A DNA stretch of 64,000 nt from Candidatus Magasanikiibacteriota bacterium (GCA_042218065.1 JBDGRL010000002.1:15539-79538), one strand, 5' to 3'. Shown: positions 4,192 to 43,673, counted from the stretch's first letter. Numbers and translations: made by a program. The notes: generated by a model from the letters alone, not told the origin.

Positions 4192-4264
4192 TGTGGATAA
4201 TTCTGTGTGTAACCTCCTTCTAATGTGGATAAATAAGGGTGATTTCCACAATTTCTGTGTATAA
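4192..4264. promoter_or_regulatory. Trio of DnaA-box 9-mers immediately 3' of tRNA-Leu
   Basis: Perfect TGTGGATAA at 4192-4200 and 4224-4232, plus TGTGTATAA at 4256-4264. Confidence 0.4.
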
Positions 4265-4363
4265 CTTGCCCTTAGAAGGCTGGTCATTATCAACAATCTC
4301 TAGATTGTAAAAATGATAAAAGTTTTATATAATTAACCTACTTAATAAATAATTCAAAAAAAT

Positions 4364-4609
4364 ATGGGAGAAATAAGTAAAGAAGAGCTTGAAAAAGAAA
4401 AGAAGCTAATATTAAAAAAATTAATCGATCACGCTGAATACAGTCCAAAACTGGAAGAAAAAATTAAAGCTAAATTTGAAGACTTAGGTGATGATGTAGA
4501 CGATAGTGTTCATGAGGTAGAACAGATGGAAGTGGAAACTACTGTGGTTTCTTTGCTTTTCGATAGACTTGAAGATATAAACAAAAAACTAGAACAAAAA
4601 GAAAAATAA
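4364..4609 (+). CDS. Hypothetical small acidic coiled-coil protein
   Basis: Complete ORF with a Lys/Glu-rich sequence; no recognisable motif. Confidence 0.35.
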   Translation: MGEISKEELEKEKKLILKKLIDHAEYSPKLEEKIKAKFEDLGDDVDDSVHEVEQMEVETTVVSLLFDRLEDINKKLEQKEK

Positions 4610-4619
4610 TTATAATAAA

Positions 4620-5075
4620 TTGCTCCAAGGAGATACACTCAAAAAAACCCGCCCAAGTTACTATCTTCTTGTTGGCGGTGTTTTTTTAATTATTGATCAA
4701 TTTTTAAAATTCTTAGCAAGAACTCATACAAATTATAGTTACTATCTCTATAAGCCATGGGTCGGCTGGGAGTATTTTGAAAACACAGGTATAGCATTTG
4801 GTTTAAATATACCGACCTGGTTTTTAATTATCATAACTCCAATTATACTTGTTTTATTTGTACATTTATTTTTAGAAAAGTCCTTCCTTGCAAAAACAGG
4901 TATCTTGAGTTTACTTTTACCGGGTGCCATTTCAAATTTTATAGATAGAATTTTATTTGGAGTTACGATAGATTATCTGAGATTTTTTACAACTCTATTT
5001 AACATAGCTGATGTCTTAATAATATCCGGAATTTTAATCTTAATATTTCATTACCTTAACAAAGAAGAAGGGTAA
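4620..5075 (+). CDS. lspA: Lipoprotein signal peptidase (signal peptidase II)
   Basis: Four TM segments carry the conserved motifs NTGIAFG, GAISNFIDR and FNIADV. Confidence 0.8.
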   Translation: MLQGDTLKKTRPSYYLLVGGVFLIIDQFLKFLARTHTNYSYYLYKPWVGWEYFENTGIAFGLNIPTWFLIIITPIILVLFVHLFLEKSFLAKTGILSLLLPGAISNFIDRILFGVTIDYLRFFTTLFNIADVLIISGILILIFHYLNKEEG

Positions 5076-5096: not shown

Positions 5097-6614
5097 ATGT
5101 TTTCTAATCTAAAATCAGCCACAGTTATAGGTTTAGAATGTCGTTCGGTTTCTATAGAAGTGGATATCTCAGGTAGCTGGCCCGCTTTTCAGATAATAGG
5201 ACTACCAAATACCGCAGTTCAAGAAGCAAAAGAAAGAATACGGGTAGCCTGGAGAAACAGCGGCTACTCTTTCCCTAATAACAAAAGAATTATAATCAAT
5301 TTAGCTCCTGCAGATGTACGAAAACAAGGAACAGCCTTTGATTTACCTATGGCGTTAGGTTTATTTTTAGCAGAAAAACAAATAGATATAGATCTCTCAA
5401 ACTGTTTATTTACCGGAGAACTAGCTTTAAATGGACAAGTTAGACATACGAAAGGAGTGCTTCCTTTAGCAATTTTTGCTAAAGAACAAGGTATAGAAAA
5501 TCTTTTCGTCCCACAAGCAAATGCAGAAGAGGCAGCGGTTATCGAAGATATAAATGTCTTTCCTGTAGAAAATCTAAAACAAATATTAGATCATATAACC
5601 AAAAAAGAGAAGATTGAATCTGTAAACAGAAAAAACAAAGAAAATTTATTAGAATACAACGACCATCAGATTGATATATCAGAAATAAAAGGTCAAAGTT
5701 TCGCCAAAAGAGCACTAGAGATATCAGCGAGCGGATCTCACAATGTTTTATTAGAGGGTCCGCCGGGCGCAGGAAAAACCATGCTTGCAAAATCTTTTCC
5801 TTCTATTTTACCAAAGCTAACTGTAAGTGAGGCTATAGATGTAACAAAAGTCTACTCAGTAGCAGAAGAGCTTCCAGAGGATAAACCTATGATTACCAAA
5901 AGACAGTTTCGGGCACCTCATCACTCAGCCAGCTCTTCTTCTTTGGTGGGGGGAGGAAGGTACCCTTCACCTGGAGAAATATCTCTAGCTCATCGTGGTG
6001 TATTATTTTTAGATGAATTCCCAGAATTTCCACGAGATGCAATCGAAAACCTTAGACAACCTCTAGAAGAAGGTCAAGTCACCATTTCTAGATCTGAGGG
6101 CAGACACACCTTCCCTGCTGATTTTATGCTTATTGCAAGCCAAAACCCTTGTCCTTGTGGGTTTGCAACAGATGAAGAAAAGTCATGCAACTGCACACCC
6201 GGTCAAATAAAAAGATATAACAAAAAAATTAGCGGACCAATAAAAGACAGAATCGATTTATATGTGGAAGTATCCAGAGTAAAATATGAAAAATTAAGCA
6301 AGGACACGAAAAAAGAAAAATCAAAAGAAGTCAAAAAAAGAGTAGAACAAGCAAGAGAAAGACAGCAAGAAAGATTTGAAGATGAGAATTACAATACAAA
6401 TAATGAAATGAGTAACGAAGATACAAATAAATACTGTCAAGTAAACCAAGAATCAGAACAACTTTTAAAACAAGCAGTAAATAAAATGAATCTAACTGCA
6501 AGAGGGTATCAGCGGGTCTTAAAAGTAGCTAGAACCATAGCAGACCTGGAACAATCGGAGGATATAGAAACTTCTCATGTAGCAGAGGCACTTCAATACA
6601 GAGATGATAAATAA
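5097..6614 (+). CDS. comM: YifB/ComM family Mg-chelatase-like AAA+ ATPase
   Basis: An N-terminal Lon-protease-like domain, a Walker A (LLEGPPGAGKTMLAK), a ChlI-type AAA+ core and a C-terminal domain. The size (505 aa) is typical. Confidence 0.85.
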   Translation: MFSNLKSATVIGLECRSVSIEVDISGSWPAFQIIGLPNTAVQEAKERIRVAWRNSGYSFPNNKRIIINLAPADVRKQGTAFDLPMALGLFLAEKQIDIDLSNCLFTGELALNGQVRHTKGVLPLAIFAKEQGIENLFVPQANAEEAAVIEDINVFPVENLKQILDHITKKEKIESVNRKNKENLLEYNDHQIDISEIKGQSFAKRALEISASGSHNVLLEGPPGAGKTMLAKSFPSILPKLTVSEAIDVTKVYSVAEELPEDKPMITKRQFRAPHHSASSSSLVGGGRYPSPGEISLAHRGVLFLDEFPEFPRDAIENLRQPLEEGQVTISRSEGRHTFPADFMLIASQNPCPCGFATDEEKSCNCTPGQIKRYNKKISGPIKDRIDLYVEVSRVKYEKLSKDTKKEKSKEVKKRVEQARERQQERFEDENYNTNNEMSNEDTNKYCQVNQESEQLLKQAVNKMNLTARGYQRVLKVARTIADLEQSEDIETSHVAEALQYRDDK

Positions 6615-10685: not shown

Positions 10686-11807
10686 TTACTCACGTATAGG
10701 CATAACGATATACTTGTAATCACTCTTACCTTCCTCTTTAAAAAGACATGGTGATTCAGAGCTGTTCATCTTAAATTCTACTTCTTCGCTCATATTCTGT
10801 AACCCATCCAAGACGTATCTATGATTTAATAAGATAGAATTATCTTCGCCCGTTATATCAGCTTCTACTTGGTCTTCGTGCTCTCCTTTTTGAGTACTAT
10901 CAGAAGATATCTCTATGTTATTATCACTAGAATTCAAAATAAACTCAACTGAGTTTACTCCAGCTGTAGTAAAAAGACTAGCGGCTCTAATCTTCTGAAT
11001 CATTACATCCACCGGAAAGGAAGCTTCACTAGAAAATGAGTCAGGTATAATTTCTGCATAATCTGGATAATCTCCTTCAACTAACCTGCTAGATAATTCA
11101 AAGTCACCATACCGCATAATCATCTGATTTTCATTAAAAGAAATCCTCACTTGAGACTCGTCAGTTAGACTTTGAGCATTTGATATCAGTCTAGCCATCT
11201 CACTAACAGTAGAACCTGGAACTATACACTCAAGCTCATCTTCCCCTTGTGCTACAGACATTTTCTTTTCTGCTAAACGATAAGAATCAGTAGCTGCAAG
11301 AACTAACCCATCATGACGGTCACCAAAAAAACCAAAAAACACACCGGAAAGTTCTGGTCTAATCTCATTTTGAGCTACAGCTATTTCTGTATTTTTTAAA
11401 GATTGACGAAAAGGTTCTGCTAATAAAGAATAAGTAAACTTTTCTTCTACCTCAGGGATTACAGGATACTCTTCAGGATCTTCACCTTTAATTTTAGTAC
11501 TAGAAGTACCACAAGTTACTGATAATTCATTACCTTCTAATTCTATTTCAACTTTCTCATCATTTAAAAGATGAATATAATCCTTCAACGTACTTGCAGG
11601 AACAGTAAACTCACCTTGTTCTTCTACTTTTGCTCTAAAGGTAGATTTTACTGTTAACTCCAAATTTGTTGCTGTCAGTTCAACTTTACTTTCTCCAACC
11701 TCGATCAATATGTTTTTTAATATTGGTAAGTTAGGATTCTTATCAACCACACCACTCACTTGATCCAATGAGTTAGCTAAATTTTCTCTGGTACATGTGA
11801 GCTTCAT
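10686..11807 (-). CDS. dnaN: DNA polymerase III beta sliding clamp
   Basis: 373 aa with the three-domain clamp architecture, N-terminus MKLTCTRENLANSL...PILKNILIEV, immediately downstream of dnaA. Confidence 0.9.
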   Translation of the reverse strand: MKLTCTRENLANSLDQVSGVVDKNPNLPILKNILIEVGESKVELTATNLELTVKSTFRAKVEEQGEFTVPASTLKDYIHLLNDEKVEIELEGNELSVTCGTSSTKIKGEDPEEYPVIPEVEEKFTYSLLAEPFRQSLKNTEIAVAQNEIRPELSGVFFGFFGDRHDGLVLAATDSYRLAEKKMSVAQGEDELECIVPGSTVSEMARLISNAQSLTDESQVRISFNENQMIMRYGDFELSSRLVEGDYPDYAEIIPDSFSSEASFPVDVMIQKIRAASLFTTAGVNSVEFILNSSDNNIEISSDSTQKGEHEDQVEADITGEDNSILLNHRYVLDGLQNMSEEVEFKMNSSESPCLFKEEGKSDYKYIVMPIRE

Positions 11808-13468: not shown

Positions 13469-13681
13469 GTTTGATGTGGATAAATTAATTCTAGGTATAT
13501 TTTAGCAAAAAAATGACGAAGGTAAAGTTTTGTCAAACTATAAGTTATGGATAAACCTGTGGAAAACTTGTGGAGGTTGTGGATATCTCCTTCTAAACCT
13601 ATGTTGAAAACTTGATTTTATTGGTTAATTAATTGTGAATAATTAGTTTTTAAGATTATTTTAGATTACTGTTTTGAAAGA
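13469..13681. promoter_or_regulatory. DnaA-box cluster upstream of dnaA (oriC/dnaA promoter region)
   Basis: Perfect TGTGGATAA at 13475-13483, then TATGGATAA (13545), TGTGGAAAA (13558), TGTGGAGGT (13569) and TGTGGATAT (13578). That is five boxes within about 110 bp. Confidence 0.65.
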
Positions 13682-30667: not shown

Positions 30668-31780
30668 TCAACTTTCTAACTCCGGGCCTTCTACTTGTTC
30701 AGCTTCTATTTCTTGCTCTACTTCGGTAATTTTAGCTACATCTTTATCTACTTTTCTCAACTCATCATAAGCAGTATTAAAATGATTCACTGTAGTAGAT
30801 AGAGTTTTTCCTAGCTTTTGCATATAAGTATCGTGATTTTGGATGTGGTTTTTTAACTTTTCTACATTTTTTCTTATTTCTTTGGCGCTTTCTTCTATTT
30901 GAAGAGATTTCAAACCTTGCAATACAGTTTGTAGATAAGCTGCGAATGTAGTTGGTGATACGATTATAACATTCTTGTCCTTGTGTGCATACTCGATTAA
31001 ATTTCTTGTAGTCGCTTCAGTAGAACCTACTTTATTGACTAGAAGATCATAATATATTGCTTCAGCCGGGATAAACATGAATGCAAATTCTAGTGTACCT
31101 TGGTTTGGTTTAATGTACTTGGAAGTCTCCTTGATTCTATTTTTTAAGTCTTTTTTAAGTTGTTTTTTTATTTTTTCTTTTTTATCTTTGTCTTCTGTTT
31201 TCATAAGTCTTGAGTAATTGTCCAATGAGAATTTTGCATCAACCGGTATTAGCCCATTTTTAGTTTTCACCACTGCATCTACTTGGTCACCATCTTCGAA
31301 TTTGTATTGCATTTCATATCCCATTGGAGGAAGAATGTTTTCTAGTATTAGTTTAAGTCCTGCTTCCCCCAGTGCTCCTCTTCTTTTTTGGTGGGTTAAA
31401 ACCTGTTTTAGATCTTGAAGCTGTTCTGAATAATCCATTACCTTCTCATTTGTCTTTTCTAAGCTCGTTAGTTTTTTCTGTAATTCTTTCAGTTCTTTTT
31501 TGCTATCTTTGGTTATATCTTTGATTGTTTCTTTGTTCTCTTTGTATTGTTCCTTGATAGATTTGTTTAATTTTTCCTTTGTTTTAGACATTTCTTTGTG
31601 GGTGTTTTGCATTTTTTCGTCTACAGTTTTATTTAGTTGCTGGATTTGTTTCTGTAGCATCATCATAGAATCTTTATTTTCTTCAGTTTGAAGCTGTTTT
31701 AGTTTTTTATACATTATATATATACCCACTAATGCGGCAATCAATAAAATTGTGAGTAAGATTAATAAAAGCTGTTCCAT
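30668..31780 (-). CDS. rmuC: DNA recombination protein RmuC
   Basis: An N-terminal TM and a long coiled coil precede a C-terminal RmuC domain (FAFMFIPAEAIYYDLL...IIVSPTTFAAYLQTV). Confidence 0.8.
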   Translation of the reverse strand: MEQLLLILLTILLIAALVGIYIMYKKLKQLQTEENKDSMMMLQKQIQQLNKTVDEKMQNTHKEMSKTKEKLNKSIKEQYKENKETIKDITKDSKKELKELQKKLTSLEKTNEKVMDYSEQLQDLKQVLTHQKRRGALGEAGLKLILENILPPMGYEMQYKFEDGDQVDAVVKTKNGLIPVDAKFSLDNYSRLMKTEDKDKKEKIKKQLKKDLKNRIKETSKYIKPNQGTLEFAFMFIPAEAIYYDLLVNKVGSTEATTRNLIEYAHKDKNVIIVSPTTFAAYLQTVLQGLKSLQIEESAKEIRKNVEKLKNHIQNHDTYMQKLGKTLSTTVNHFNTAYDELRKVDKDVAKITEVEQEIEAEQVEGPELES

Positions 31781-32084
31781 TTAAATAGTGTTACTTAATG
31801 CCAAGTTATTATAACACTATAGGTAATGGATAGAAAATTTTAGTATATTATATTTTACGACGCAGAATTTATTCTTAATTAAGTGAAATTTAAGTTTGTT
31901 AAAAAGTGATTAAAAATTTAATCAGAATCTGATTTTATTAATTCTCGTTTGTATCTTAATTTATTTTATTTGAAATTGTTTCACGTGAAACAATATAGGC
32001 TTTTTAAACTAATAAGATTAAAATAAATATTTTAGCTTGATAAATTTATTGAAATTTGTTACTGTGAAGTTGTTCTTTCAGGAC

Positions 32085-32365
32085 AACGAGTTTGCTAGTG
32101 GTAATTCCTAGGATTACCTACTGGCATGCCCTAGCCATCTCTGGGAGCAGCTAATAGCTGCCTAAGATTGATGCTCCGTTCGGGCGAGTCCGGATAATCA
32201 ATCTTAGAAAAAGCTGGCAGCCGATGCTGGGGCTTACTTGCCTTCGGCAGGGCAGGACCTCCTCCCCAGTGAATCGGTTTGGGGTTTCACCCACCCCGCC
32301 TCCCGATAGATCTCTATTGCCCTGATCAAGCAATATATCTACCGGGAGGTAAACGGGTTTTTTTA
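32085..32365 (+). ncRNA. GC-rich structured RNA-like element of unassigned identity, between parS sites 1 and 2
   Basis: About 280 nt at over 50% GC inside roughly 25% GC intergenic DNA. Multiple hairpins: GGTAAT-tcctagg-ATTACC, GCAGC-taata-GCTGC, GATTGAT...ATCAATC, CTTGCC-ttc-GGCAGG, and a long CCTCCCG...CGGGAGG stem followed by a T7 run. No clear protein frame. Confidence 0.35.
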
Positions 32366-32800
32366 TTTAAAATTGTTTCACGTGAAACAATTCTGCTCGT
32401 ATTTTACTCTGATATGGGTATTTAGCAGTAATTTTGCAGTTAAAATGTTTCACGTGAAACAATTTTACATCAATATACAGTCTTTTTGCTTATAAAAAAT
32501 GTTTCACGTGAAACAATTTAGTTACTTAAAACGTGTAAATAAGACAAAACACCGAAAAAAAGTGAATAATATTGTTTCACGTGAAACACTTTTTAAACTG
32601 AATAACCAAAATTATCTTTATTTGCATATTTATTACTTTTTTTTAGTATAGCTCCCTTTTTTATCTTAGATTGATAACAGCTCCCAAAAATGCTATAATC
32701 ACCCTGTATTGTTTCACGTGAAACAATTTAAACCAAGAAAATATAGGAAATAGGGTAAATGAGATGAAAAATGGATGAAAATGTTTCACGTGAAACATTT

Positions 32801-32872
32801 GCCCTCGTAGTTTAATGGACAAAACAAAAGCCTCCTAAGCTTTAGATGCACGTTCGATTCGTGCCGAGGGCA
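32801..32872 (+). tRNA. tRNA-Arg (anticodon CCT)
   Basis: Acceptor GCCCTCG/CGAGGGC, anticodon stem-loop AAAGC-CTCCTAA-GCTTT, T-arm GCACGTTCGATTCGTGC; 72 nt. A parS site sits immediately upstream (32780-32799). Confidence 0.85.
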
Positions 32873-33180
32873 CAAGTAAATACTCTTCATTAGAAAGGTG
32901 CTGAGTGTTCTTTTAGTGTATATTTAGACTCAATGTTTCATGTGAAACATTGAAAAGATAAATTAAACTTGTTAAACCCCTATAAAAGCCAAAAAGTTAT
33001 AAAGATATAGAAAAAAGTATATTTATAACTGAAAAGTACATAAAATTGTTTCACGTGAAACAATTTGGTAAAACCTTTAATCAAAAACGGGCTTGTTAAT
33101 TGTTTCACGTGAAACAAAGAGGAGTTAAAAATCTGTTTAGTTGTTTTTTGAAATTTTAGCGTCGTAAAATATTAATATCT

Positions 33181-33265
33181 TGTGGAAAACTTGTTGATAA
33201 GTTAAAAAAATTAGTGGATAAATTGTGTATAAGTTCTTAAAATCTGTTGATAAAGCTGTGGATAA
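33181..33265. promoter_or_regulatory. Dense cluster of six DnaA-box-like 9-mers (second oriC-like or DnaA-titration element)
   Basis: TGTGGAAAA (33181), TGTTGATAA (33192), AGTGGATAA (33213), TGTGTATAA (33224), TGTTGATAA (33246) and a perfect TGTGGATAA (33257-33265), all on the same strand within 85 bp. AT-rich DNA follows. Confidence 0.5.
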
Positions 33266-33361
33266 AAACAATTTAAACTAAATTAAGCTCAAATTATAAT
33301 AAGTTTATATAGATCCGTTTTTATCGACTAAATATTGAAAAATTCATCAATCAAGGCGTAT

Positions 33362-33690
33362 TAGATCATAAAAAAATGTTACTGAAATGACTTACGGTTA
33401 GATCACAAAAAATGTTACTGTGGTGTGTTTAATTTTTTAAATTGAACACACCATGAACAATCAAGCTAAAACATCTTACCAGCGAGTGCAAGAGCACTCG
33501 CAGATAGACCAGAAAGTAAAAAATAAACTTAAAGAAAAATTTAAGCAACTTAACCCCAAACAACTTAAAGAAAACATAGACAAAATGATTAAAAAGATTA
33601 GAAAATCAGCCCAAAATACAAAATAATTTCAGTAACATGCTTTTATGATCTAACCGTGGGGGGTTGAGTAACAATTTTTATGATCTAAAG
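33362..33690. repeat. Four copies of a TAGATCA(Y)AAAAAATGTTACTG motif (two direct, two inverted) bracketing a 57-codon Lys-rich ORF
   Basis: Direct copies at 33362-33388 and 33398-33424; inverted copies at 33618-33648 and 33668-33690. The ORF 33453-33626 (+) encodes MNNQAKTSYQRVQEHSQIDQKVKNKLKEKFKQLNPKQLKENIDKMIKKIRKSAQNTK. A related GTTACTG motif lies at about 32055. Confidence 0.35.
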
Positions 33691-33732
33691 CGCAAGGTAC
33701 ACCCTTTTTAAAGTATGTGTTATAATAACCAC

Positions 33733-41891: not shown

Positions 41892-43673
41892 ATGCAAGAA
41901 TACTCAGACAAAGAGCATAAAGCTTTACTTAATTTTGTAACAAGCACGGATTCAAATATTTACGCAGTAAAGAATTTACGTCCAGAAGTTTTTGGTGCTT
42001 TTGGTTCCTTCTTTTCGCGCAGCCCGAAAGATGTACGTGATCATATATTGGATGCAGTTAAAGGTGAAATTCGAGGTTACGAGATGGAGGGTGGAGAAGA
42101 AAGATTGAATAAATTAGCTACAAGCTATGAATTTCTACAAAAAAGATCAAAACTAGACTCTGGTGAAGACAGTGGAGGTATTAAGCAAGAGTTGAAAGAT
42201 ATTTTGAATAAAAAACGAGGGGTTAGAGCTGAGCTTGAAGCTTCTATTTTTGAACCACCAATGAAGGCTTTAGAGTCTGGTTTAGAGAAATCTCAGTCTT
42301 TTTTTGAAAAGTATTATGGAACTTATGGTCACAAATCTATTGCAAATACTGTTTGGATTTCATTTGTGGCAAATGATGTCAGTCAACTTTTTGCCCGAAA
42401 ACTGGCTGATGACCAACTTGCATTTTTTATTGAACAATCCACACGTTTTGTCGAATTTGAAGATAATTATTACAAGGATCCTAGAATTATGGAAAGTGAA
42501 TATAGCGATCTCTATAATGATACCTTAGAAACTATGATTGAATACTATAACAAATTTTATGAGCTAGCTAATAATTTCTACCAAGAAAAAATACCATTTA
42601 ACGACTGGCTAGACCAACAATCAGATAGGGTTAAAGAAAAGTCTGATAGCTATCAGGAAAGAAAATATGAAAGAGAACTAAATGGAAAAGCTTTGGATAT
42701 CGCAAGATTTTTGTTGCCTCAAGCTATAAAAACTAATTTAGCGTGGATCCTAGACGCTAGAAGTACGGAGTTTGATATAGCAAGCTGGAAGGGGCACCCA
42801 TTGTCCGAGATACAAGAATCAGCTGAAAAAATAGAACAAGCTGGCGGAGAAATTGCACCTTCTTTGCTTAAATACACAGAAAAAAATGATTTTTATGAAG
42901 AAAAGTTGCATGAATATGGTGGTGATTTAGAATTAGACTTGGAAGATAAAGAGATTGAAAAAGGGGTAGAAATTGTATCTACTCCCGAAGACTGCTTTGA
43001 GAAAGTGGTAGCACACATCTTAAAGCAAAATAATATAGGTAAATTTAGTCAGTTTTTCCAAAAAGCGAAAAATATGACTTATGATGAAAAGCTAGATATT
43101 TTAGAGCGTACAGTAAAAAATAGAGGTGAATACGATGAGTGGGTGGGAGCAAATGAGGAGATAGATTTAGAAAAAATCGTGGTAGAGATTAAAACTGATG
43201 TGGGAGCACTGAGGGATATTAGAAGACATCAAAAAAATGATAGAGGAGAGCATAGATATTCGCTAGATATGGGGTATTATCGTCCTGATGTAGTTGATAA
43301 AATGAACAAAGAAGCCCAAAATTTATTCGATAAAACTATGGATATTGCACATGAAGCTGAGAAAGAAATTAGAAAAGACTTCCCTTTTGCGGTTCAGTAC
43401 TTGATTCCTATGGCATCCATGACAACTATTACTATGAGTATGGGGTTCGATCAGTTGCAATACTTTATCTACACTAGGTCAACTCCAGAAGGTAATTTTT
43501 CTTATCGAGAAGATACATTTAATTTAACAGAAGCATTAGTAAAGAAATTTCCTTGGTTGTTGGGAATGAAAGAATACCCTGAAGATAAGGACATCAAAGA
43601 AGTTTATGATAATTGTAGTTGGCAAGATTTGTTTATCTCTTTAAGTACTGACGAGACTGGTTTACATACTTAA
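41892..43673 (+). CDS. Tandem-duplicated ThyX-like (flavin-dependent thymidylate synthase fold) protein with non-canonical catalytic motifs
   Basis: The first-half segment GHKSIANTVWISFVANDVSQLFARKLADDQLAFFIEQSTRF aligns with the ThyX core [41 protein letters not shown], but ADD replaces RHR. The second half has VEIVSTPED...IVVEIKTDVGALRDIRRHQKNDRGEHRYS, with RHQ in place of RHR and the Ser position not conserved. Length is 593 aa against about 220-250 for canonical ThyX. Confidence 0.5.
   Translation: MQEYSDKEHKALLNFVTSTDSNIYAVKNLRPEVFGAFGSFFSRSPKDVRDHILDAVKGEIRGYEMEGGEERLNKLATSYEFLQKRSKLDSGEDSGGIKQELKDILNKKRGVRAELEASIFEPPMKALESGLEKSQSFFEKYYGTYGHKSIANTVWISFVANDVSQLFARKLADDQLAFFIEQSTRFVEFEDNYYKDPRIMESEYSDLYNDTLETMIEYYNKFYELANNFYQEKIPFNDWLDQQSDRVKEKSDSYQERKYERELNGKALDIARFLLPQAIKTNLAWILDARSTEFDIASWKGHPLSEIQESAEKIEQAGGEIAPSLLKYTEKNDFYEEKLHEYGGDLELDLEDKEIEKGVEIVSTPEDCFEKVVAHILKQNNIGKFSQFFQKAKNMTYDEKLDILERTVKNRGEYDEWVGANEEIDLEKIVVEIKTDVGALRDIRRHQKNDRGEHRYSLDMGYYRPDVVDKMNKEAQNLFDKTMDIAHEAEKEIRKDFPFAVQYLIPMASMTTITMSMGFDQLQYFIYTRSTPEGNFSYREDTFNLTEALVKKFPWLLGMKEYPEDKDIKEVYDNCSWQDLFISLSTDETGLHT

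Follow-up and report, generated by a model that had tools for sequence, protein, structure and literature searches.

The chromosome of a Candidatus Magasanikbacteria bacterium carries a dense array of parS sites that very probably marks its centromere, or the main part of it. The array lies in a stretch of 64,000 nucleotides (GCA_042218065.1, JBDGRL010000002.1:15539-79538), hereafter the window, which is ordinary chromosome of a metagenome-assembled genome (MAG) belonging to the candidate phyla radiation (CPR, Patescibacteria). All coordinates given here are counted from the first nucleotide of the window. Ten copies of the canonical ParB-binding palindrome are packed into 1.14 kb, equivalent to approximately 9 sites per kb. 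This array represents the dense end of an already known continuum of parS arrangements and not a new kind of feature.

The parS array is confined to a single intergenic locus of the window. Using the 16-bp palindrome TGTTTCACGTGAAACA as query, we searched the whole window and derived the chance level from dinucleotide-preserving shuffles; since the motif is palindromic, sites were counted on the plus strand. All ten sites fall between 31977 and 33116. Nine are exact while the site at 32934 (TGTTTCATGTGAAACA) contains a single mismatch, with a central CATG instead of CACG. The shuffles predict 0.04 matches at up to two mismatches and 0.29 at up to three for a sequence of this length. No copy of the motif is present outside the array in the 64 kb, even at up to three mismatches, and the number of half-sites elsewhere in the window (7) agrees with the chance expectation (7.6). 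A first-pass annotation, made from the sequence alone, had reported ten parS sites at 31975-33117 with irregular spacings of 54-397 bp, and both statements hold: the measured start-to-start spacings are 397, 72, 54, 73, 137, 72, 152, 113 and 54 bp. Its further statement that the 16-mer is usually extended to a 20-mer does not, with the full ATTGTTTCACGTGAAACAAT being found at only four of the ten sites. The constant flanking positions are an A at -2 (10/10 sites) and a T at +2 (9/10 sites). The same annotation had assigned almost all copies to non-coding DNA, which is correct in kind and understated in extent: all ten are non-coding and located within a 1,934-bp gap between the end of rmuC (31780) and the next credible open reading frame (ORF) at 33715. 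Every small ORF within the array (32367-33117) starts with MFHVKQF, the translation of parS itself (AATGTTTCACGTGAAACAAT), and these overlapping ORFs are consequently artefacts. One of them, at 32499-32651, has been called as a 50-amino-acid gene on a Logan contig, an annotation artefact of the parS array.

The spacers of the array are mutually dissimilar while the 16-mers are invariant. This combination fits selection acting on each individual site and not recent tandem duplication. The exception is a 34-nt direct repeat consisting of the first parS and its flank, which recurs around the second parS at 32358-32391. An independent Logan assembly (L001, run SRR28304479) contains the identical ten-site array, which is therefore not an assembly artefact.

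The motif is the canonical parS, as the first-pass annotation had proposed. The same 16-mer forms the core of an idealised parS duplex made for X-ray crystallography of ParB (10.1101/724823), TGTTTCACGTGAAACA has served as the parS substrate across many ParB studies, and nine of the sites match the consensus TGTTNCACGTGAAACA at all 16 positions. The related Noc-binding site (NBS, ATTTCCCGGGAAAT; sequence from 10.1101/724823) was considered as an alternative identity and rejected because the specificity positions differ. The coordinates of the individual sites and of the surrounding features are collected in Table 1.

Table 1. Sites of the parS array and features within and around it. Coordinates refer to the window; consensus-based assignments are predictions.
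Feature	Coordinates	Strand	Remarks
parS 1	31977..31992	.	perfect; between rmuC promoter region and GC-rich RNA element
parS 2	32374..32389	.	perfect; directly after the T-run closing the GC-rich element
parS 3	32446..32461	.	perfect
parS 4	32500..32515	.	perfect
parS 5	32573..32588	.	perfect
parS 6	32710..32725	.	perfect; ~4 nt past predicted tRNA-Arg transcription start
parS 7	32782..32797	.	perfect; 3 nt 5' of tRNA-Arg, inside probable tRNA leader
parS 8	32934..32949	.	one mismatch
parS 9	33047..33062	.	perfect
parS 10	33101..33116	.	perfect; 65 bp ahead of DnaA-box cluster
GC-rich structured element	~32068..32366	+	candidate stand-alone non-coding RNA gene
Promoter-like TTGATA-17-TATAAT with extended TG	32671..32699	+	11/12 matches; consensus match only
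tRNA-Arg (anticodon CCT)	32801..32873	+	Rfam 70.8 bits; ARAGORN
DnaA-box-like cluster	33181..33265	+	six co-oriented 9-mers: one perfect TGTGGATAA, five with one mismatch
rmuC	30668..31780	-	Pfam RmuC 5e-56; 100% identical to MFB6181328.1 (Candidatus Magasanikbacteria MAG, 116-kb contig); left flank and synteny anchor
dnaA	12059..13468	-	DnaA boxes at 13475-13642; probable oriC region
dnaN	10686..11807	-	

The array is located close to the replication origin and occupies the same position in a relative. The dnaA and dnaN genes lie 18.5 kb to its left, confirming the origin-proximal location put forward in the first-pass annotation, and the array is found approximately 19 kb from the dnaA-linked origin on the right replichore. 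Relatives were obtained by protein search followed by contig look-ups, and no close relative was found via RmuC in GTDB genomes. In the closest relative fetched (contigs L122 and L123; RmuC 75% identical), four parS are present upstream of rmuC at the same junction, two of them perfect and two with one mismatch, at spacings of 54, 54 and 58 bp. The rmuC-proximal sequence of these contigs aligns with the window, the spacers are unalignable, and the contigs end just past the array. The gene order rmuC-rpsT-holA-polA, made up of housekeeping genes, is shared between the window and its relatives. Short-read contigs of the organism and its relatives (L122, L123, L124, L128 and L001) often end 0-1.6 kb upstream of rmuC, and L122 and L123 break off at the parS array or shortly after it. 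For these two at least, the repeated palindromes probably interrupt de Bruijn-graph assembly.

Dense parS arrays recur in other genomes. In one genome for each GTDB species, we looked for two perfect parS sites lying 30-60 bp apart and then determined, locus by locus, how many parS with no more than one mismatch the densest 1.2 kb contains. Tight parS pairs were identified at at least 120 loci in Lachnospiraceae, Streptomyces, Chloroflexota, Acidobacteriota, CPR and other groups, most with 2-4 parS per densest 1.2 kb and several with 6-11. The densest, in an uncultured member of the Bacilli with a reduced genome (L082), contains 11 parS at 5384-6463, ten of them at an exact period of 55 bp plus one more. 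In Candidatus Onthocola (L107), another of the reduced-genome Bacilli, nine parS are irregularly spaced at 2059-2959. Both arrays are located between gyrA and tadA-ffs(signal recognition particle RNA)-dnaX(-recR), the position where Bacillus subtilis carries the rRNA operon rrnO. Three Clostridia MAGs contain regular arrays in the classic mnmG-rsmG-parAB origin neighbourhood: 8 parS at 46-47 bp directly upstream of Pfam-confirmed parA-parB in a member of the Lachnospiraceae (L047, 1014-1353), 6 parS at 34-70 bp between rsmG and parA (L057, 7246-7498), and 6 parS at 56-58 bp, with the first 141 bp out, between mnmG and rsmG (L118, 6325-6709). Within the CPR, 8 parS per 1.2 kb are found in a Paceibacterota chromosome (L077), 6 in a member of the Parcubacteria (L078) and 5 in a member of the Saccharibacteria (L120). 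These eight arrays resemble the one described here in being intergenic, in using the same 16-mer at 5-11 sites per 1.2 kb and in their origin-region neighbourhoods. They differ in that several are regular tandem arrays (55 bp x 10; 46-47 bp x 8; 52 bp) while the array in the window shows irregular spacing, unrelated spacers and embedded RNA genes. With parB present within the 8-kb locus in about half of the 120 listed genomes with tight parS pairs and parA-parB directly beside the L047 array, dense arrays of this type are tied to ParB.

One of these arrays is built as a repeat of a composite unit. At 4440-4915 of the L078 locus (Parcubacteria MAG JAAZHW010000091.1), a tandem unit of approximately 218 bp consists of a split parS (TGTTTCAC-N7-GTGAAACA), directly followed by a perfect DnaA box (TTATCCACA) and then three parS at 52 bp. 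About two units are visible and the repeat stops approximately 150 bp short of the contig end.

Among characterized chromosomes, the closest counterpart is found in Myxococcus xanthus, where 22 of 24 parS form a 3-kb cluster located ~4 kb upstream of parA and ~30-35 kb from oriC (PMC3899335; PMC3778016). A 3-kb fragment with these parS is shifted by ParB in a gel assay (PMC3899335). Both are dense chromosomal arrays, with ~7 sites per kb in M. xanthus and ~9 here, located tens of kb from oriC. In contrast to the window, the M. xanthus cluster follows a GC-rich consensus (TGTTCCACGTGGAACG), has less uniform sites and lies beside parAB, while nine of the ten window sites match the idealised parS perfectly and the window array has RNA genes between its sites. 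Clustering of parS near ori is textbook knowledge (PMC7333895, PMC5815017), with 1 to 20-23 parS reported per chromosome near ori and the cause of the clustering called open (PMC7333895). In Caulobacter crescentus, the five strongest parS fall within 5 kb at a distance of ~8 kb from ori, and the authors argue that a cluster packs ParB more densely onto the DNA where a lone site supports only short-range spreading (PMC5815017). The Caulobacter sites are thus likewise clustered near ori; they are found in essential or high-fitness-cost genes and vary in affinity, whereas the window array is intergenic and uniform. The four strongest parS of B. subtilis are ~5, 13 and 39 kb apart (PMC5815017). 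The Spo0J/parS system of this organism (TGTTNCACGTGAAACA) shares with the window the identical 16-bp palindrome, a distance of at most ~20 kb from dnaA and the presence of multiple sites. Many of the B. subtilis parS lie within genes, whereas the window contains ten sites in 1.14 kb of purely non-coding DNA with parAB not adjacent.

The compactness of the array had led the first-pass annotation to regard a tight intergenic array as unlike chromosomes and closer to plasmid or phage centromeres. This was overstated in view of the 22 sites in 3 kb of M. xanthus and of the tight pairs in at least 120 species genomes, several with 6-11 sites per 1.2 kb. F sopC and other tandem-repeat centromeres of plasmids and phages likewise pack many ParB sites into at most ~1 kb of non-coding DNA, which is where the likeness lies. 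Such centromeres have plasmid-specific sequences and are located beside their own parAB operon on a mobile replicon, whereas the window array has neither a plasmid-specific sequence nor an adjacent parAB nor a mobile replicon around it.

The centromere assignment draws on the established ParABS pathway. A ParB dimer would bind each 16-bp palindrome via its helix-turn-helix and, with cytidine triphosphate (CTP), would form a closed clamp that slides away along the neighbouring DNA, leaving the site open to another dimer. Ten tandem sites, putatively of high affinity, would multiply this loading flux and generate a small, very dense partition complex ~19 kb from oriC, which would function as the cargo of ParA and/or as a loading point for SMC. 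Because sites flank both RNA genes embedded in the array, loading from either side would be independent of clamps sliding through transcribed stable-RNA genes. Spreading of ParB over both the transfer RNA (tRNA) and the candidate non-coding RNA is plausible.

A number of observations weigh against the array being the centromere. No ParB, ParA or SMC gene is present in the 64-kb window and the cognate protein is assumed. ParA and ParB domains were absent from every window ORF of at least 150 amino acids, and a tblastn search with B. subtilis Spo0J (used as a probe only) returned no match in the window, in agreement with the first-pass annotation, which had seen no parA or parB there; the same probe readily finds parB in ~60 other loci. 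The Logan contigs matched by proteins from the window edges reach no further than the window itself. The confinement of parS to one array rests on 64 kb and further parS may exist elsewhere in the genome. Helical phasing of the sites is unconvincing (p = 0.02 at 10.5 bp, p = 0.22 with a period of 10-11 bp). In Magasanikbacteria whose RmuC is ~59% identical, no parS is found up to 10 kb from rmuC, indicating that the position of the array is kept only at short evolutionary range. Finally, ParB binding, ParB spreading and the involvement of ParA or SMC are inferred by analogy with the pathway outlined above.

Two RNA features are embedded in the array. The first-pass annotation had noted a tRNA-Arg gene with a parS abutting its 5' end as well as a GC-rich RNA-like element, and both are found. 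The promoter-like site at 32671-32699 is the probable promoter of the tRNA-Arg gene, with a predicted transcription start near 32706; parS 6 would then begin at about +4, and parS 7 would fall in the leader of the tRNA. Promoter-like consensus matches in the array region are not above those in shuffled sequences.

The GC-rich element is a candidate orphan non-coding RNA gene. Its G+C content is estimated at ~58% and its flanks are AT-rich. The predicted fold has a minimum free energy of -133 kcal/mol, and z-scores of -6.3 (plus strand) and -5.2 (minus strand) relative to shuffled sequences mark the element as strongly structured. By eye, a promoter-like TTGATA-N17-TACTGT is visible upstream and a T-run is present at the 3' end. 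The two copies of the 34-nt direct repeat, each containing one parS, bracket the element. The families of Rfam 15, among them tmRNA, RNase P, SRP and 6S RNA, gave no match at E<=10, even when the element was searched alone, and ARAGORN detected nothing credible in it, even at relaxed thresholds. Homologs were found neither by blastn and nhmmer against all fetched loci nor by blastn against plasmid and phage records, and an exact 20-mer scan of JGI metagenomes returned one chance match in what appears by eye to be a high-GC helicase-like ORF. Similarity to the sequence downstream of the L122 array is weak and unconvincing. Inspection by eye indicates a minihelix resembling a T-arm plus acceptor stem and a hairpin recalling the stop-codon hairpin of transfer-messenger RNA (tmRNA). 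The T-arm-like hairpin reads GGGGU-UUCACCC-ACCCC and leads directly into GCCUCCC, whose pairing partner GGGAGGU is found 39 nt downstream. An identity as tmRNA was rejected as the topology fits neither the standard nor the permuted form, and RNase P was rejected as the CR-I and CR-V motifs are absent.

The RNA genes and the adjacent DnaA-box-like cluster could in principle belong to one composite hub. Here, the orphan ~300-nt RNA and the minor tRNA-Arg(CCT) would be transcribed inside the partition complex, and ParB loading would be linked in cis both with the titration of DnaA and with the production of a new family of RNAs encoded within the centromere. This idea stems from the six-box cluster 65 bp from the last parS and from the Parcubacteria genome in which perfect DnaA boxes are interleaved with parS, and we regard it as unlikely. 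Very unlikely, in our view, is an array that primarily serves transcriptional control or insulation, with ParB at parS 6/7 and 1/2 gating the RNA genes and segregation being secondary. The placement of parS 6 and 7 relative to the predicted tRNA-Arg start and the flanking of the RNA element by parS 1 and 2 within the direct repeat are consistent with such gating, and reviews mention some species in which ParB alters how parS-neighbouring genes are expressed (PMC7022226). However, only four of the ten sites have such a promoter relation, and the tRNA-Arg promoter itself is a consensus match in a region where such matches are at chance level. Loss of Spo0J in B. subtilis left the expression of parS-adjacent genes unchanged (PMC7022226). 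Among the 120 loci listed, a tRNA gene accompanies a tight parS pair at one, arguing against a general association, and the four parS of L122 have neither a tRNA nor a GC-rich element between them.

The window contains more DnaA-box-like 9-mers than expected (44 observed, 18 expected), with three clusters at 4192-4295, 13475-13642 (upstream of dnaA) and 33181-33265. The boxes of the last cluster are spaced by 11/21/11/21/12 bp. Together with this cluster, the array might constitute the true origin or a second origin-like module, a fused oriC-centromere 20 kb away from dnaA. The six co-oriented boxes just past the last parS are followed by AT-rich DNA, gene orientation diverges at the array with minus-strand genes to its left and 15 kb of plus-strand genes to its right, and the 218-bp repeat of the Parcubacteria locus combines perfect DnaA boxes with parS. 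Nucleotide skew places the origin elsewhere. We regressed per-gene GC3, overall GC and AT3 (third codon position) skew on coding strand and on the side of a movable switch point. All three measures put the replication switch at 12-15 kb, the location of dnaA/dnaN, while even a model without any switch outperforms one with the switch at 33.2 kb. The array is therefore origin-proximal but not oriC, and the cluster at 33181-33265, which does not coincide with the skew switch, is secondary. In addition, dnaA has a box cluster of its own, and DnaA boxes are not enriched near parS clusters in the 120 genomes listed (ratio ~1.0). An origin at the array was consequently rejected as highly improbable; the cluster is possibly a DnaA-titration or regulatory site.

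It is extremely unlikely that the array serves as the centromere of a mobile element such as an integrated plasmid or phage. Canonical parS arrays do occur on viral contigs of IMG/VR (43 stretches with tight parS pairs, up to 8 sites per 1.2 kb), and a small ORF flanked by inverted repeats is located just to the right of the array. Against this, searches near the array found no parAB, ParA or ParB domains, integrase, replication, phage or other mobile-element genes, the flanks consist of housekeeping genes in conserved synteny with parS at the same junction in L122, no compositional island is present except for the RNA element, and that element is without a match in plasmid and phage records. 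This chromosomal context argues against a plasmid or phage origin. A coincidental resemblance of generic repeats (REP-like hairpins, terminators or an unrelated operator) to parS is likewise extremely unlikely: perfect palindromes in an AT-rich intergenic setting are able to form hairpins and no ParB gene is visible in the window, but nine sites match the pan-bacterial consensus in full, the repeats are restricted, within the 64 kb, to one origin-proximal locus instead of being dispersed, half-sites elsewhere in the window are at chance level, and the exact same sequence forms arrays beside parAB in other phyla.

Apart from the genes in Table 1, the window encodes rnpA, ssb, rpsF, rpsR, a PBP1-type penicillin-binding protein, polA, holA, rpsT, gatB, tRNA genes (four in all, with tRNA-Arg) and a cluster for deoxynucleoside triphosphate metabolism (dcd, dut, folA, tmk). 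Within this cluster, a 593-amino-acid ORF at 41892-43673 contains two Thy1 (ThyX) stretches and is about twice the usual length of ThyX. To the right of the array, four copies of a ~20-nt repeat (GATCAYAAAAAATGTTACTG) are present at 33361-33688, two direct and two inverted. They bracket a 57-amino-acid lysine-rich ORF (33453-33626) located just upstream of a cell-surface protein operon, and Logan contig L001 breaks off within the first pair of copies. At 32052-32066, the promoter-like site of the GC-rich element carries a 15-mer related to this repeat. The repeats may form a set of operators or be what is left of a small mobile element.

A literature search found no paper describing parS in CPR/Patescibacteria. 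In practical terms, the short-read contigs L122 and L123 end at or just past the array, and parS sites yield spurious 'MFHVKQF...' gene calls. The array leaves the understanding of ParABS unchanged. Small-genome lineages, namely CPR, reduced Bacilli and some Clostridia, repeatedly show very dense arrays of consensus parS, some of them perfectly tandem, and this recurrence bears on the question, raised in reviews, why parS sites multiply and cluster. For the organism itself, the array very probably locates the centromere of a Magasanikbacteria chromosome and speaks, indirectly, for the use of a canonical ParB by this reduced genome.

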